Assembly (NCBI GenBank): GCA_032027045.1
Contig: JAVSMU010000001.1
Span: 2,309,112 to 2,373,111 of the forward strand
Direction of reading: 5' to 3'
From: Truepera sp.
GTDB taxonomy: Bacteria; Deinococcota; Deinococci; Deinococcales; Trueperaceae
Length of the DNA: 64,000 nucleotides
Shown here piece by piece: positions 33,991 through 38,069 of this stretch (the stretch's first letter is position 1; each line of letters opens with the position of its first letter). The notes under the pieces were generated by a model. It was not told the DNA's origin, ran no database searches, and saw only the letters and a program-made list of their open reading frames with translations. The position numbers were made by a program, and so were the translations under genes.

Positions 33991-35286
33991 ATGCGAGAGA
34001 GCGTGCGCGGGCGATCTGAACGCGAGGTAGTCATCGTCAGCGCCGTCCGGACGCCCGTCGGCCGCCTCGGCGGCGCGCTGGCGAGCGTAAGGCCGGACGA
34101 CCTGGCGGCCCTGGTGATCCGCGAGGCCCTGGCTCGGGCAGCCACGGACGATCTCGAGGTGGAGGAGGTGTACCTCGGCTGCGCCAACCAGGCGGGCGAG
34201 GACAACCGCAACGTGGCCCGCATGGCCACTTTGCTGGCGGGGCTCCCGGAGACAACGCCCGCAGTGACGGTCAACCGCCTCTGCGCCAGCGGCCTGACCG
34301 CCGTGAACATGGCCGCGCGCGCCATCTTGGCGGGCGAGGGGAGCGTGTACGTGGCCGGGGGCGTGGAGAGCATGACCAGGGCGCCTTACGTGCTGGCTAA
34401 GAACCCGCGGCCGTTCGGCCCGCCGGGCAACCGGACCGCGTTCGATACCTCGCTCGGCTGGCGCTTCCCGAACCCGCGCCTGGCCGACCTCTACCCGCTG
34501 GAGGCCATGGGCGAGACCGCCGAGAACATCCACGAACTCAGCCTCGAGGGCGGCGTGGCCGGCGGCGAGATCTCGCGGGAGGAGCAGGACCGTTTCGCGC
34601 TGTTGAGCCACCAGCGCGCCGTCGCGGCGATGAACGCCGGGCGTTTCGACGACGAAATCATGGCAGTGGAGGTGCCCGCGGGTAAGGGTGCCGTCGAGCG
34701 GTTCGGGCGCGACGAGCACCCGCGCTACGAGGCCAGGGGCGACGAGTTGGTGGTGACGACGGACCTGGCCTCCCTCGCCAGGCTGAAACCGGCGTTCCGG
34801 GCGGGCGGCACCGTGACGGCCGGCAACTCGTCGGGGATGAACGACGGCGCCGCCGCCCTGGTGCTCATGAGCGCCGAGCGCGCCGCCGACCTCGGGCTGC
34901 GGCCGCTCGCCAGGTGGCGGGCGTCGGCGGCCAGCGGCATAACGCCGCGCCTGATGGGCCTGGGTCCGGTGGACGCCAGCCGCAAGGCCCTGGCGAGGGC
35001 CCGACTGGCGCTGAGCGACCTCGACCTGATCGAGCTCAACGAGGCCTTCGCCGTGCAGGCCCTCGCCGTCATGCGCCAGTTGGGCCTGAGCGAGGAGCGG
35101 GTGAACGTCAACGGCGGCGCCATCGCCATCGGCCACCCCCTCGGGTGCTCCGGCGCCCGCATCCTCACGACGCTGGTGCACGAGCTGGCGCGCAGGGCCG
35201 CCACCGGCACGGCCCGTTACGGCCTGGCTACGCTGTGCGTCGGCGTCGGGCAGGGCGAGGCAACGGTGGTCGAGGCGGTGCCTTGA
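33991..35286 (+). CDS. acetyl-CoA C-acyltransferase (thiolase)
   Basis: [24 protein letters not shown] (active Cys), NEAFA and [18 protein letters not shown] precedes the ATG. Confidence 0.9.
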
Positions 35287-35342
35287 GCGCGGGCCCGGGT
35301 ACTTCACACCGCGCTACCACCGCGTAGCTCTAGGCTCGCTGG

Positions 35343-38069
35343 GTGGCCCCCCGGAACCGCTTCCTTCCGCTGACTACCCTTCCGCTGCTGCTCCTCGTCC
35401 TGGTTGCCTGCGGCGGGGCCGTCCCGGGCGGTCCGCTCACCGGCGCCTGCCATGCCGAGCACGCCTCATCGTCGGCTCTCGCCGCCGCCGGTGCGTATGC
35501 CGACGGTGCGTTGATGGCCGCGGCACTTCCTGCGATCGCGAACCCACAGCCCAGTAAGGAGCCGCCGAGCCCCAACCGACGCTGGTCCGACGCCGCCGGT
35601 TGGTTCGGCGGCCGGCTCCCGCAGGCGGGCGACGACGTGACGATCGAGCAGGGCGACGTCGTGCTGCTGGACGTCTCGCCGCCGCCCCTGTCCGGACTGA
35701 CCATCGCGGGTGCGTTGGTGTTCGACCGTGCGGACATCGACTTGGTCGTAGACCACATCTTGCTTGAGGGCGGCCTCTACGTGGGCTCTGCCGGCCGGCC
35801 GTTCACGCAGAACGCCACCATCACGCTCGCAGGCGGCCGGGCGCCGGACGACGGCTGCCTTGGCAGCAACTACATCGCCGTCGTGGGCGGCACGCTCGAA
35901 CTCTACGGCGACCCTGCGGGCGTGGCTTGGACCCGCCTTGCCGCAACGGCGGAGGCGGGCGCCGGCAGCATCACCGTGGACGACGCCGGCGGCTGGCGCG
36001 TTGGCGACAGCGTGGCCATAGCCTCCACCGACTTCTACTCGCCCGAGCACCACCAGGCCGTCTCACGTGACCTGCAGGTGGAAGCCCGAACCGTCACCGC
36101 GGTGAGCGGCTCGACCCTGACGCTCGACTCGCCGTTGGCCTACCAGCATTACGGCCGGCGGCAGACCTTCGCGGCCGGTACGGGCCTGCCGACTACCGTG
36201 CTCGAGTCGCGCGCCGAGGTGGCGCGGCTCAGTCGCAACGTGAAGGTCATGGGTGCCGTCGCCACCACCGACCCGGGCAGCCCCGACTACCAGTTCGGGG
36301 GCCAGGTCATGGCCATGGGGGAGGCGCGCGTGCGCCTCGACTCCGTGGAGCTCACGCGCATGGGTCAGGCCGGTCTGCTGCTGCGCTACCCCGTCCACTT
36401 CCACCTCATGGGCAAAGCGGGCGAGGGCTCGTTCATCCGCAACAGCAGCCTGCACGGGCTCTTCAACCGCTGCGTGACCATCCACGGCACCGGCGGGGTG
36501 CTGGTGGAAAACAACGCCGCTGTGGACACGTTCGGTCACTGCTACTTCCTGGAGGACGGCGCCGAGACCGGCAACGTTCTGCGTGGGAATCTGTCGTTGC
36601 AGACCCGCAAGCCGACGGCGGCGGATGCGCTGCTTCCGACCGACGTCTCCTACCTGGGGCCGGCCGGGTTCTGGGTGACGAACCCGGCGAACTACGTCAT
36701 GGCCAACGTGGCCGCCTCCTCGGAGGGGACCGGCTTCTGGTACGCGCTACCCGAGCACCCTACGGGTCCCTCCTACGCCCTCTTCGGCGGCGCCGACCAG
36801 TGGCCGCGCCGCACGCCCCTCGGTAGCTTCTCGGGCAACTTGGCGCACTCGAACTACGTCGACGGGCTCCACGTCGACGGCGGGCCCCGGGCCGGCAGCC
36901 TCGCCTCCGAGTCCACCTACTACGCCCCGCGCACCGATCCCGCGGACCGGCGCTCCGCTCCGGTGCAGGCGGTGTTCGAGGGTTACGTGGCCTACAAGCA
37001 ACGCAACGCCGCCGCCTGGTTCCGGGGCGACAACGCCGTCTTGCGTGGGGCGCTGCTGGTGGACAACGCCGTCGGCGTCACCTTCGCCTCCAGGGCGTCT
37101 GGGCTCGAGGCGAGCGTGGTGGTGGGCGAGAGCGACAACCTCGGGACGCCGGCCCCCTGGGAGCCGACGGGCAGCGGCGGGCGTTCCCTGCCCAAGCCGT
37201 GGCAACCCGACCTCGCCATCCGGGGGTTCGAGTTCTACGACGGCCCGGTCCTCGTCGCGGACTCGCACTTCGAGGGCTACACGCCTACGCCGCAGCGTGA
37301 GGCGGGAGCCTTGAGCGTCCTCGACTACACGTCCTTCTCCATGAGCCCGCTGTCGGCGGCGCGGGGGCTGTCGTTCGGCGCGGGCACCAACCGCGTGAAC
37401 TTCGAGACGCGTTCCATGAGCGACTACGACCCGGACACCAGAGACTCGGGCGAGGACGGCTACCGCAGCGCCGTCTTCCTCGACCAGGACGGCAGCGTGA
37501 CGGGAACGGCCGGCAAGTACGTGGTGATGCCCAACCCGTTCCTCCTCGGCCCTGATTGCGAGCGCCGCACCGACTGGAACGCTTACGTGTGTGGTGGCCG
37601 CTACGTGAGCCTCACCTACCTTGACGAGACCACTCCGGCGCGAGGTTTCGCGCCCCTCACGCTTGCCTCCCCGGCCGGCACTCACGTCATGTTCGGCAGC
37701 CCGGAGGGTGGGCCCAGCGTACCCAACCGTCACTACCGGAGCATCGTGCCCTTCCAGCGGGAGTACCGTTACGAGCACTCCGGCTTGAGCCCCAGCACGT
37801 TCAGCATCGATCTGGGGGAGGCGCGGCCCGGCGACCGGCTCGTCGTCAGCGTGCCGTTCAGGCAAGCGGCCACGCCGTTCGTGTACCGCGACTGGTGGCT
37901 AGACCCCCGCGGCCTGGTGCCGCCCTACTCGAGCGCGGCCGCGCTGCGAACGGGCCCGTCGAGCGGCTACTTCGTGGACTCGTCGAACGACCGGCTCTAC
38001 CTCCTCCTGATCGTGCGGGAGGACCACGATTACGCGCGCCTCACCGTATGCCGCGCGGCGGGCTGCTGA
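35343..38069 (+). CDS. G8 domain / right-handed beta-helix lipoprotein, CEMIP/TMEM2-like
   Basis: Lipobox LVLVAC. G8-like RWSDAAGWFGGRLPQAGDDVTIEQGDVVLLD. Beta-helix core RYPVHFHLMG...NRCVTIHGTGG...GHCYFLEDG. GTG lies 7 nt after a TAGGCT box. Confidence 0.85.
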   Translation: MAPRNRFLPLTTLPLLLLVLVACGGAVPGGPLTGACHAEHASSSALAAAGAYADGALMAAALPAIANPQPSKEPPSPNRRWSDAAGWFGGRLPQAGDDVTIEQGDVVLLDVSPPPLSGLTIAGALVFDRADIDLVVDHILLEGGLYVGSAGRPFTQNATITLAGGRAPDDGCLGSNYIAVVGGTLELYGDPAGVAWTRLAATAEAGAGSITVDDAGGWRVGDSVAIASTDFYSPEHHQAVSRDLQVEARTVTAVSGSTLTLDSPLAYQHYGRRQTFAAGTGLPTTVLESRAEVARLSRNVKVMGAVATTDPGSPDYQFGGQVMAMGEARVRLDSVELTRMGQAGLLLRYPVHFHLMGKAGEGSFIRNSSLHGLFNRCVTIHGTGGVLVENNAAVDTFGHCYFLEDGAETGNVLRGNLSLQTRKPTAADALLPTDVSYLGPAGFWVTNPANYVMANVAASSEGTGFWYALPEHPTGPSYALFGGADQWPRRTPLGSFSGNLAHSNYVDGLHVDGGPRAGSLASESTYYAPRTDPADRRSAPVQAVFEGYVAYKQRNAAAWFRGDNAVLRGALLVDNAVGVTFASRASGLEASVVVGESDNLGTPAPWEPTGSGGRSLPKPWQPDLAIRGFEFYDGPVLVADSHFEGYTPTPQREAGALSVLDYTSFSMSPLSAARGLSFGAGTNRVNFETRSMSDYDPDTRDSGEDGYRSAVFLDQDGSVTGTAGKYVVMPNPFLLGPDCERRTDWNAYVCGGRYVSLTYLDETTPARGFAPLTLASPAGTHVMFGSPEGGPSVPNRHYRSIVPFQREYRYEHSGLSPSTFSIDLGEARPGDRLVVSVPFRQAATPFVYRDWWLDPRGLVPPYSSAAALRTGPSSGYFVDSSNDRLYLLLIVREDHDYARLTVCRAAGC

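Follow-up and report, generated by a model that had tools for sequence, protein, structure and literature searches.

The gene, its export signal and its upstream region

The gene under study occupies positions 35343–38069 of the window (the whole 64,000-nucleotide stretch of Truepera sp. DNA that was analysed), on the + strand, as do all features described below; it starts with GTG, stops with TGA and encodes a G8/CEMIP-beta-helix lipoprotein of 908 amino acids (P0001). The N-terminus, MAPRNRFLPLTTLPLLLLVLVAC, has the basic n-region, hydrophobic core and lipobox L-V-A-C with Cys23 of a lipoprotein signal peptide (residues 1–23, positions 35343–35411), which bears out the assignment made in an earlier sequence-only reading of this DNA. 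LVAC fits the lipobox pattern [LVI][ASTVI][GAS]C, lipidation is predicted, and the same signal is kept in orthologues; among close homologues 77 of 121 have a lipobox, and others have Sec-type signals. The signal peptide is followed by a tether (residues 24–78, positions 35412–35576) that is predicted to be disordered (AlphaFold pLDDT is <50 over residues 1–60) and that includes the Cys/His segment GACHAEH and the proline-rich end PSKEPPSP. Within the 40 top-ranked matches, 28 of 30 lipoprotein orthologues have a Cys and at least two His in this tether, often as CxDxMxGH, vs none of 16 lower-ranked matches; the motif is confined to one clade (the Trueperaceae clade) and is absent from eukaryotes. 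Judged from its lipobox and its conserved cysteine pairs, which are typical of extracytoplasmic proteins, the product is an exported protein.

A −10-like box, TAGGCT (TANNNT; positions 35331–35336), lies 6 nt before the GTG and there is no Shine-Dalgarno sequence, the arrangement by which Deinococcus-type leaderless genes are recognised from sequence (TANNNT some 6–7 nt ahead of the start codon, with the Shine-Dalgarno sequence absent). All five same-genus orthologues have TAGGCT, TAACCT or TAGCCT at the identical 6 nt spacing, and a sigma-70 consensus scan found nothing. The gene has its own conserved promoter, which is plausibly of the leaderless type, as had been proposed. A putative upstream element, TACTTCACACC (positions 35300–35310), lies 22 nt upstream of the −10 box and is kept in all five same-genus orthologous loci (one base differs in L025), whatever the upstream gene is. 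A role for TACTTCACACC as a regulon motif was ruled out, as the 10-mer has only three genome copies, which equals the control count.

Gene neighborhood

Genes were called and clustered around 20 loci of the phylum and around 54 loci spread over seven phyla; no partner gene was conserved across genera in either set. Synteny exists at the genus and family level only and is with housekeeping genes; the syntenic sets are EamA transporter, thiolase and proS; rsmD, coaD, aldehyde dehydrogenase and ligA; and NAMPT, macro domain, SDR and LRR genes. The neighborhoods gave no CAZyme, carbohydrate-utilisation, transport or polysaccharide-synthesis context in any of the examined lineages, and inference of a substrate from the neighborhood failed because no gene is conserved across genera. 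In the window a thiolase gene lies between the EamA and G8 genes, but among the other four same-genus loci with the upstream region covered just one has it there, and we rejected it as a functional partner. The earlier description of a gene that stands alone beside a thiolase is thus right in that there is no conserved operon partner, but the thiolase neighbor is absent from some related genomes.

Domain architecture and relationship to TMEM2

From its N-terminus the exported portion of the protein contains a G8 domain (residues 87–200, positions 35601–35942; Pfam PF10162, E = 8.8e-28), whose presence the sequence-only reading had called correctly and which makes up the first turns of a beta-helix, as G8 also forms part of the helix in TMEM2 (PMC10206443). 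This is followed by a small beta-sandwich insertion (residues ~201–290, positions 35943–36212; DSSP strands in the model) that aligns to TMEM2 chain 338–410 and occupies the spot where the animal proteins additionally have the GG-1 lectin domain. A match of this insertion to the K1-lyase “Rider” domain was sub-threshold (E = 0.02; 15.7 bits, with the cut-off at 27) and was not used. The CEMIP beta-helix core (residues 317–509, positions 36291–36869) matches the full Pfam model PF24606 (CEMIP_beta-hel, 1–212) with E = 2.5e-65, the remaining helix rungs (residues ~510–649, positions 36870–37289) were delineated by DSSP strand pattern and conservation and contain the conserved D512, R561, D574 and IRGFEFYDG, and a C-terminal beta-sandwich (residues ~650–908, positions 37290–38066; the boundary is approximate) corresponds by alignment to “domain X” of TMEM2 and has the conserved pairs Cys739/Cys750 and Cys903/Cys908. 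Both PF10162 and PF24606 exceed their gathering scores in one polypeptide that has no GG insert; searches of the protein against NCBIfam and PHROGs found no model and no family, respectively. The architecture is a single, minimal, stand-alone “TMEM2-homology” module, G8 followed by a right-handed parallel beta-helix and domain X.

The sequence comparison was made against TMEM2, the paralogue of CEMIP. In a phmmer search of all PDB sequences the human TMEM2 ectodomain (8c6i) is the only match (E = 2.6e-79, query residues 69–908), and a family-profile search of the PDB finds 8c6i at E = 1.6e-167, no other solved relative and no sequence-level match to characterised CAZy-type structures. The AlphaFold model (pLDDT 90.3, pTM 0.89) finds the same structure with Foldseek (E = 2e-49, TM 0.78 over the whole query, 24% identity in the structural alignment), and since ~37 orders of magnitude separate this match from the next structural ones, it is not generic beta-helix similarity; G8 and domain X both align. 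The sequence alignment has two blocks, query 69–206 to chain 26–168 and query 211–908 to chain 338–1067, within which RYPVHFH, RCVTIHGT, GHCYFLEDG, FWVTNP..GFWY, AHSN, AYK..AW.RG, IRGFEFYDGP, DQDGSVTG and the C-terminal ..C...GC are collinear with TMEM2. The motif blocks that had been said to recur in CEMIP order all align in that order when tested on TMEM2. The accompanying claim of full-length collinearity holds for the bacterial protein, including G8 and domain X (92% of its length), but only for about two-thirds of the TMEM2 ectodomain. The remainder includes lectin-like domain 1, GG-1 (chain 169–337, residues ~251–419), which has no counterpart because the query passes directly from residue 206 to 211, and GG-2 with the C-terminal helix (beyond residue 1149), since the bacterial protein stops at chain 1067 of 1301. 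The family HMM matches bacterial and protist proteins in one stretch and molluscan proteins in two. Both lectin-like GG domains are absent from the window protein.

Distribution and phylogeny of the family

The family comprises 7,335 cluster representatives at E ≤ 1e-3, and bacterial species genomes of seven phyla contain at least 585 loci; 81 of 201 Deinococcota genomes have a copy. The host phyla include Deinococcota, Gemmatimonadota and Chloroflexota, and the hosts are free-living and environmental. The expectation that G8 proteins are mostly eukaryotic fails, as bacterial members are very numerous and already have database names such as “G8 domain-containing”, “cell surface hyaluronidase” and “cell migration-inducing and hyaluronan-binding protein”. 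The window protein is a further member of a G8 + CEMIP_beta-hel family of bacteria and eukaryotes that is already catalogued in Pfam and at NCBI. In the phylogenetic tree a single branch (SH-aLRT 96) has the eukaryotes to one side, and the window protein is nested inside Trueperaceae; because bacteria and eukaryotes are separate on the tree, there is no sign in this lineage of a recent inter-domain transfer, the possibility that had been put forward for testing. A tblastn search of 50,697 phage records gave no match. Various relatives carry SLH, CWB2, PA14, T9SS-tail, PKD or FG-GAP modules, which are cell-surface or carbohydrate-binding contexts, and 3 of 273 sampled relatives have an N-terminal cupredoxin whose His/Cys/His/Met copper site is intact. 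In the literature searched we found no demonstrated activity for any bacterial family member, and no bacterial, prokaryotic or catalytic-site study of CEMIP/TMEM2 homologues.

An invariant His/Arg/Glu/Asp cluster

The candidate functional site is a cluster of invariant residues (positions 36384–36566) made up of R348, Y349, P350, H352 and H354; R376 and H381; and G398, H399, F402, E404, D405 and E408, so that the window protein has the pattern H-x-H / R-x4-H / G-H-x2-F-x-E-D-x2-E. The full core of eight residues (H352, H354, R376, H381, H399, E404, D405 and E408) is retained by 251 of 279 domains. The cluster is invariant across 34 bacterial sequences and is also kept in molluscs, amoebae, Rigifila, Chromosphaera, Volvox copy 1 and human TMEM2, where the equivalents are H550/H552/R580/H585/H603/E608/E612. 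Most of the core residues are lost in eight domains, mainly second copies within multi-copy giant proteins, of which the degenerate second copy of Volvox fibrocystin-L is an example. That wholesale loss occurs mainly in degenerate second copies indicates that the cluster is a functional site, and the persistence of such domains after the loss indicates that the fold does not require the core residues. Strictly conserved Trp, Asn and Asp residues are found as well, on successive helix rungs. In the model the invariant residues appear to lie on one face of the helix, a placement derived from strand periodicity and not from measured distances.

Proposed function and alternatives

We estimate a probability of roughly 0.6 that this exported, lipid-anchored TMEM2-homology module is a surface polysaccharide depolymerase that acts endo and whose substrate is probably not hyaluronan. 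The disordered linker of ~55 residues would tether the module to the membrane, and a substrate groove along the strand ladder, lined by H352/H354, H381, E404/D405, W444, W466, D512 and R561, may cleave polysaccharide internally at the cell surface, by either a hydrolase or a lyase reaction. The substrate would more likely be a polysaccharide from the environment or one that belongs to the cell's own envelope or matrix. The structures that Foldseek ranks next after 8c6i, namely K1 capsule lyase, phage tailspikes and GH87, all depolymerise glycans. Several points count against a depolymerase: known beta-helix hydrolases and lyases do not usually have a cluster of four histidines, no lineage examined has a carbohydrate-related gene context, the searched literature yielded no bacterial member of demonstrated activity, and catalysis is disputed even for TMEM2.

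Could the groove bind glycan without cleaving it, as in an adhesin or an envelope-organising module? Such a role is argued by some for human TMEM2 and assumed for fibrocystin, and a single-copy gene that is syntenic among housekeeping genes fits a structural envelope role. The animal literature is divided: the catalytic mechanism is unsettled (PMC10206443, PMC12423501), as the sequence-only reading had stated, with neither hyaluronidase activity nor an assignable active site reported for one purified human TMEM2 ectodomain (PMC10206443), another being active (PMC10474455), and PMC12423501 citing a description of human TMEM2 as a regulator rather than an enzyme. Nonetheless, strict conservation of eight charged or histidine residues across domains of life, and their wholesale loss mainly in second copies of giant proteins, are more typical of catalysis, and the structural neighbors other than TMEM2 are all enzymes; we consider a purely non-catalytic protein unlikely. 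The animal names of the relatives and the homology to TMEM2 would instead imply a true bacterial hyaluronidase whose substrate is hyaluronan or another glycosaminoglycan, but those names were transferred by homology only, the hosts are free-living environmental bacteria and there are no glycosaminoglycan-utilisation genes nearby. The substitutions known to alter hyaluronan degradation (CEMIP R187; TMEM2 R265, D273, D286 and, in chimeras, His248/Ala303) are all in GG-1 (PMC10206443, PMC12423501). Since the residues that have so far been tied to hyaluronan degradation all belong to the GG domains, both of which are absent here, activity of that type cannot be deduced from the homology, and we regard a true hyaluronidase as very improbable.

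The four invariant histidines (H352/H354/H381/H399) and three acidic residues (E404/D405/E408) on adjacent rungs could also be read as the metal center of a metal-dependent, possibly redox, enzyme that cleaves in a non-classical way, with the clade-specific Cys/His/Met-rich tether capturing or delivering the metal. The prevalence of the tether motif in the lipoprotein orthologues (above) and the three relatives with a fused cupredoxin are in keeping with this, but such fusions are a tiny minority of the sampled proteins, the tether motif belongs to a single clade, no metal was reported in the 3.5 Å TMEM2 structure and Ca2+ is the sole reported cofactor dependence, so this idea seems doubtful indeed. 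Its broadest form, a long shot in our estimation, would have the invariant four-His/Arg/three-acid cluster as the metal active center of the whole CEMIP/TMEM2/fibrocystin superfamily, served in cis by the tether in Trueperaceae and by the fused cupredoxin in a few relatives, and the bacterial module, whose groove is less occluded and which lacks lectin domains, would then be a minimal self-sufficient enzyme. Were it true, it could explain hyaluronan cleavage by the animal proteins and the inconsistent behavior of purified preparations.

The value is that of the whole family rather than of the window gene, as bacterial members are abundant. CEMIP and TMEM2 govern the turnover of hyaluronan in cancer, arthritis, skin ageing and deafness, and fibrocystin, which has two copies of the module, is mutated in recessive polycystic kidney disease; to our knowledge the active site has been identified for none of the three. 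The animal proteins are big glycoproteins that are difficult to produce. A bacterial core of ~830 residues with three probable disulfides, taken from cultivable and even thermophilic relatives (Meiothermus, Deinococcus), would be a practical model for the role of the conserved His/acid cluster.

Comparison with known systems

The window protein resembles the beta-helix depolymerases, namely the Klebsiella K1 capsule lyase (7w1c), phage tailspikes, GH87 alpha-1,3-glucanase and chondroitinase B, which are likewise extracellular and combine a right-handed parallel beta-helix with an inserted small domain and whose active sites are on the concave strand face (PMC10206443). Beta-helix hydrolases and lyases are recognised by an acid pair, or a Brønsted base plus a Ca2+ site, on that face, and in the window protein the invariant acidic and His residues are the candidates for such a role. 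The likeness is at the level of fold only (Foldseek E from 1e-12 to 1e-4, TM ~0.2, 8–14% identity); these enzymes have neither G8 nor domain X, and their catalytic residues cannot be aligned with the window protein. The TMEM2H regions of fibrocystin (PKHD1) and fibrocystin-L share the unit of G8, beta-helix and domain X (bioRxiv 10.64898/2026.10.19.758525), but there it is duplicated inside proteins of at least 4,000 amino acids with IPT, PA14 and SEA domains, and second copies are without the His/acid cluster that Volvox fibrocystin-L keeps in its first copy; in the window protein the module stands alone.

Human/mouse TMEM2 shares with the window protein the invariant motifs RYPxHFH, RCxTxHGT, GHCxFLEDGxE, W..NP..N.AA, AHSN, IRGF..YDGP, DxDGSVTG and the C-terminal C...GC. 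TMEM2 and its paralogue CEMIP differ in having GG-1 inserted in the helix, GG-2 and the C-terminal helix, in carrying N-glycans, and in their anchorage, which is a type II transmembrane segment in TMEM2 and a plain secretion signal in CEMIP as opposed to a bacterial lipoprotein anchor. In TMEM2 the mid-helix face is occluded by two loops of 36 and 24 residues (PMC10206443), whose counterparts in the bacterial protein measure 18 and 15 residues by alignment, and the link to hyaluronan that TMEM2 and CEMIP have is not known for the latter. The bacterial “G8 domain-containing proteins”, such as those of Deinococcus pimensis, Deinobacterium chartae, Meiothermus taiwanensis and Trueperaceae MAGs, are direct orthologues or paralogues with 42–80% identity, ~830–950 amino acids, both Pfam domains and mostly lipoprotein or Sec signals, from which the window protein has no essential difference; within them it belongs to the Trueperaceae clade with the Cys/His-rich tether.

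Homology with the human TMEM2 ectodomain

The 908-codon open frame at 35343–38069 (+ strand) starts with GTG, and its G+C content of about 0.70 is equal to that of its flanks, so composition gives no hint that the gene was acquired recently. The predicted protein begins with MAPRNRFLPLTTLPLLLLVLVAC, a classic lipoprotein signal whose lipobox is LVAC (with Cys23), and Pfam models place a G8 domain at aa 87–200 (E 8.8e-28) and a CEMIP beta-helix at aa 317–509 (E 2.5e-65, with the model matched along its full length); both the lipobox and the G8 domain had been proposed in the sequence-only reading and are confirmed here. No NCBIfam model matches the protein. Its sole match among all PDB sequences is the ectodomain of human TMEM2 (CEMIP2, a paralogue of CEMIP; entry 8c6i, E 2.6e-79), which a profile of bacterial homologues finds at E 1.6e-167; residues 69–206 pair with residues 26–168 of the 8c6i chain, and residues 211–908 with 338–1067. 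Every block quoted earlier as shared with CEMIP/TMEM2 was found, in unchanged order and including the C-terminal Cys-x4-Cys, and this agreement is far beyond chance; the collinearity had been called full-length, which holds for the bacterial protein, covered in its entirety, but not for the animal protein, which is covered only partly.

With 34 homologues as input, AlphaFold2 gave a confident model of the window protein (mean pLDDT 90.3, pTM 0.89), with disorder confined to residues 1–60 (the signal peptide and tether). When the model was compared with the PDB by Foldseek, 8c6i ranked first (E 2e-49, query-normalised TM 0.78), and the remaining, far weaker matches (E 1e-12 or worse, TM ~0.2) are beta-helix glycan depolymerases, namely Klebsiella K1 capsule lyase, phage tailspikes, a GH87 glucanase and AlgG, so that the fold neighbours are exclusively glycan-active.

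A large bacterial family

G8 proteins had been described as mostly eukaryotic, and their abundance in bacteria contradicts this. Of 1.84 billion cluster representatives, exhaustively searched with HMMER, 7,335 match at E ≤ 1e-3 and 1,841 still do so at E ≤ 1e-30; in genomes representing bacterial species, two peptide patterns were by themselves enough to locate at least 585 loci, covering Deinococcota (Trueperaceae, Deinococcus, Meiothermus), Actinomycetota, Chloroflexota, Gemmatimonadota, Armatimonadota and Alphaproteobacteria. A word-indexed search found 666 matches among 8,000 scored candidates, and all of the best 120 of these carry both Pfam domains. The family is present in 81 of 201 genomes of the window genome's phylum, Deinococcota, and in all six sampled genomes of its genus, with one copy in the window's own genome. 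In this very large bacterial family the window gene is an unremarkable representative of the Trueperaceae branch. Its homology with the animal proteins is genuine and complete, but Pfam (PF10162/PF24606) and NCBI/JGI product names already record it; several relatives are labelled “G8 domain-containing protein”, “cell migration-inducing and hyaluronan-binding protein” or “cell surface hyaluronidase”. We found no paper on biochemical or structural work on any bacterial member in the literature searched, and no structure from the bacterial family in the profile search of PDB sequences.

Eukaryotic carriers include molluscs, the amoebae Balamuthia, Soliformovum and Pyxidicula, Rigifila, the ichthyosporean Chromosphaera, and Volvox (in fibrocystin-L). 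The family model matches the protist proteins in a single unbroken stretch, as it does the bacterial ones; of the eukaryotic members found, the mollusc proteins alone have the insert formed by GG-1, the first lectin-like domain of the animal proteins, and in this they resemble TMEM2. A quick, unrooted IQ-TREE tree (62 proteins, 841 columns, short search), in which several eukaryotic branches are long and eukaryotic composition differs, places all ten eukaryotic sequences on one side of a single branch (SH-aLRT 96) and nests the window protein within a well-supported Trueperaceae clade (99–100). The inter-domain transfer for which a phylogeny had been suggested is thus not seen as any recent bacterium–eukaryote event involving the window lineage. 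Deinococcota copies occupy at least seven separate positions among Actinomycetota, Chloroflexota, Gemmatimonadota and Alphaproteobacteria, which indicates repeated horizontal exchange of the gene between bacterial phyla.

Gene neighbourhood and probable promoter

In the genus, an EamA-type transporter gene is followed by the G8 gene, with or without a thiolase gene between them, and after the G8 gene come a small ORF in convergent orientation and proS. The window has the thiolase gene at 33991–35286, between the transporter and G8 genes; of four other same-genus loci in a first set that extend over the upstream region, one has it too, and a second, wider set contains six loci with the thiolase ahead of the G8 gene. 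Beyond the family, unrelated housekeeping genes surround the G8 gene, among them rsmD, coaD, an aldehyde dehydrogenase and ligA in genomes of the Meiothermus type, and NAMPT, a macro domain, an SDR and an LRR protein in those of the Deinococcus type. No neighbour recurs across seven phyla, in keeping with the earlier remark that the gene stands alone, and gene context is therefore uninformative on the substrate. The LRR protein, another “eukaryote-like” extracellular module, is a 310-aa leucine-rich-repeat protein (LRR_8, E 1e-41) whose gene directly adjoins the G8 gene of one sampled Deinococcus-type locus (L033:10501–11430, − strand), with equivalents in two others (L034 and L035), three genomes in all.

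The spacer between thiolase and G8 genes is 56 nt long and has no Shine-Dalgarno sequence; TAGGCT sits exactly 6 nt upstream of the GTG, and a TANNNT box lies at this same distance in 5/5 same-genus orthologues. An 11-nt element, TACTTCACACC (35300–35310), lies 22 nt upstream of the −10 box, too distant for a normal −35 box, and is conserved in the same five promoters with or without a thiolase upstream. As a phylogenetic footprint, this conservation supports the view that the G8 gene has a promoter of its own, probably a leaderless one, as had been predicted, and the thiolase has been gained or lost without disturbing it. Consensus scans at the G8 gene gave no sigma-70 promoter and no convincing terminator. 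As a genome-wide motif TACTTCACACC was rejected, since its copies elsewhere in the genome do not exceed the control count.

A conserved cluster on the helix

Residues invariant in 34 bacterial sequences include R348, Y349, P350, H352, H354, R376, C377, H381, G398, H399, C400, F402, E404, D405, E408, D434, W444, N450, N455, W466, N499, D512, R561 and D574. When nine eukaryotes and the first Volvox fibrocystin-L module are considered together with the bacterial sequences, the universal set is Y349, P350, H352, H354, R376, H381, G398, H399, F402, E404, D405, E408, N416, D434, W444, N455, W466, N499, H502 and D512, with TMEM2 counterparts that include, counted along the sequence alignment, H550, H552, R580, H585, H603, E608 and E612. 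Eight of these (H352, H354, R376, H381, H399, E404, D405 and E408) form a core that is kept whole in 251 of 279 modules from 273 sampled proteins. Most of the other 28 differ at one position, often D405 to Glu, and eight, mainly second copies within multi-copy giant proteins, have lost most of the core.

The giants with a mostly replaced cluster are Volvox fibrocystin-L (P0172, aa 3082–3503) and the metagenome proteins P0190, P0178, P0252, P0209, P0256, P0180 and P0175 (aa 909–1679); the first copy in the Volvox protein retains the cluster. Because the fold is still recognised without them, the core residues are dispensable for folding, and the familiar pattern of an active copy beside a degenerate one suggests that they mark a functional site. 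In the strand pattern of the model, rung after rung carries one of H352/H354, H381, E404/D405, W444, W466, D512 and R561 in its first strand or immediately behind it, and these residues would share one groove along the helix, which is where beta-helix enzymes bind polysaccharide (PMC10206443).

Function of the window protein

We consider it probable (roughly 0.6) that the window protein is a cell-surface enzyme that cuts a polysaccharide, because it would be exported and lipid-anchored, has conserved cysteine pairs, glycan-active fold neighbours and a strictly conserved, putative polar/aromatic groove, and has relatives bearing SLH, CWB2, PA14, PKD, FG-GAP and T9SS modules. The enzyme may be a hydrolase or a lyase. 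Hyaluronan is an unlikely substrate, since GG-1 is absent and the hosts are free-living environmental bacteria; all substitutions known to affect hyaluronan degradation by CEMIP/TMEM2 map to GG-1 (PMC10206443; PMC12423501). That the protein is instead a non-catalytic glycan-binding or envelope protein would agree with the negative assays on human TMEM2, and we give this a distinctly smaller chance than an enzyme.

In the segment GACHAEH, the lipoprotein tether (35412–35576, aa 24–78) has a second Cys, with His residues after it. Among lipoprotein orthologues in the best 40 matches, 28 of 30 have a tether with Cys and at least two His, often as CxDxMxGH or HDHDxVHASC, and mean His content is 6.2% in the tether versus 2.8% in the rest of the protein; the pattern occurs in 0/16 lower-ranked lipoprotein homologues. 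The tether may be a metal-binding segment. Three metagenomic relatives that are 44–45% identical (P0091, P0094 and P0108) have an N-terminal cupredoxin fused to the G8/CEMIP beta-helix module; it is of the plastocyanin/azurin family, above the Pfam cut-off, with the copper site His...Cys-x2-His-x2/3-Met intact, and two of the three also have a C-terminal PA14 domain. A metal-dependent, possibly redox enzyme is suggested by four invariant histidines, by the tether rich in Cys, His and Met, and by these fusions with their intact copper site, but the fusions occur in only 3 of 273 sampled family members, so that this remains a weak lead and is improbable; we hold it equally doubtful that all members of the superfamily share the cluster as a metal-based catalytic centre.

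Comparison with TMEM2 and fibrocystin

A small bacterial core could help to locate the active site of CEMIP, TMEM2 and fibrocystin, a usefulness that attaches to the family and not to the window locus. By the published description of the TMEM2 structure (PMC10206443) the parts of the window protein are G8 helix turns, a small inserted beta-sandwich, the helix core and a C-terminal beta-sandwich, “domain X”; unlike TMEM2 it has no GG-1 (TMEM2 ~251–419), no second lectin-like domain (GG-2) and no terminal helix. Two TMEM2 loops, 627–662 (36 aa) and 733–756 (24 aa), are said to obstruct the mid-helix face (PMC10206443), whereas they align with only 18 (423–440) and 15 (513–527) residues of the window protein. 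The same unit in fibrocystin was recently named the “TMEM2-homology region” (bioRxiv 10.64898/2026.10.19.758525); the window protein is equal to that unit, but free-standing on a lipid anchor.
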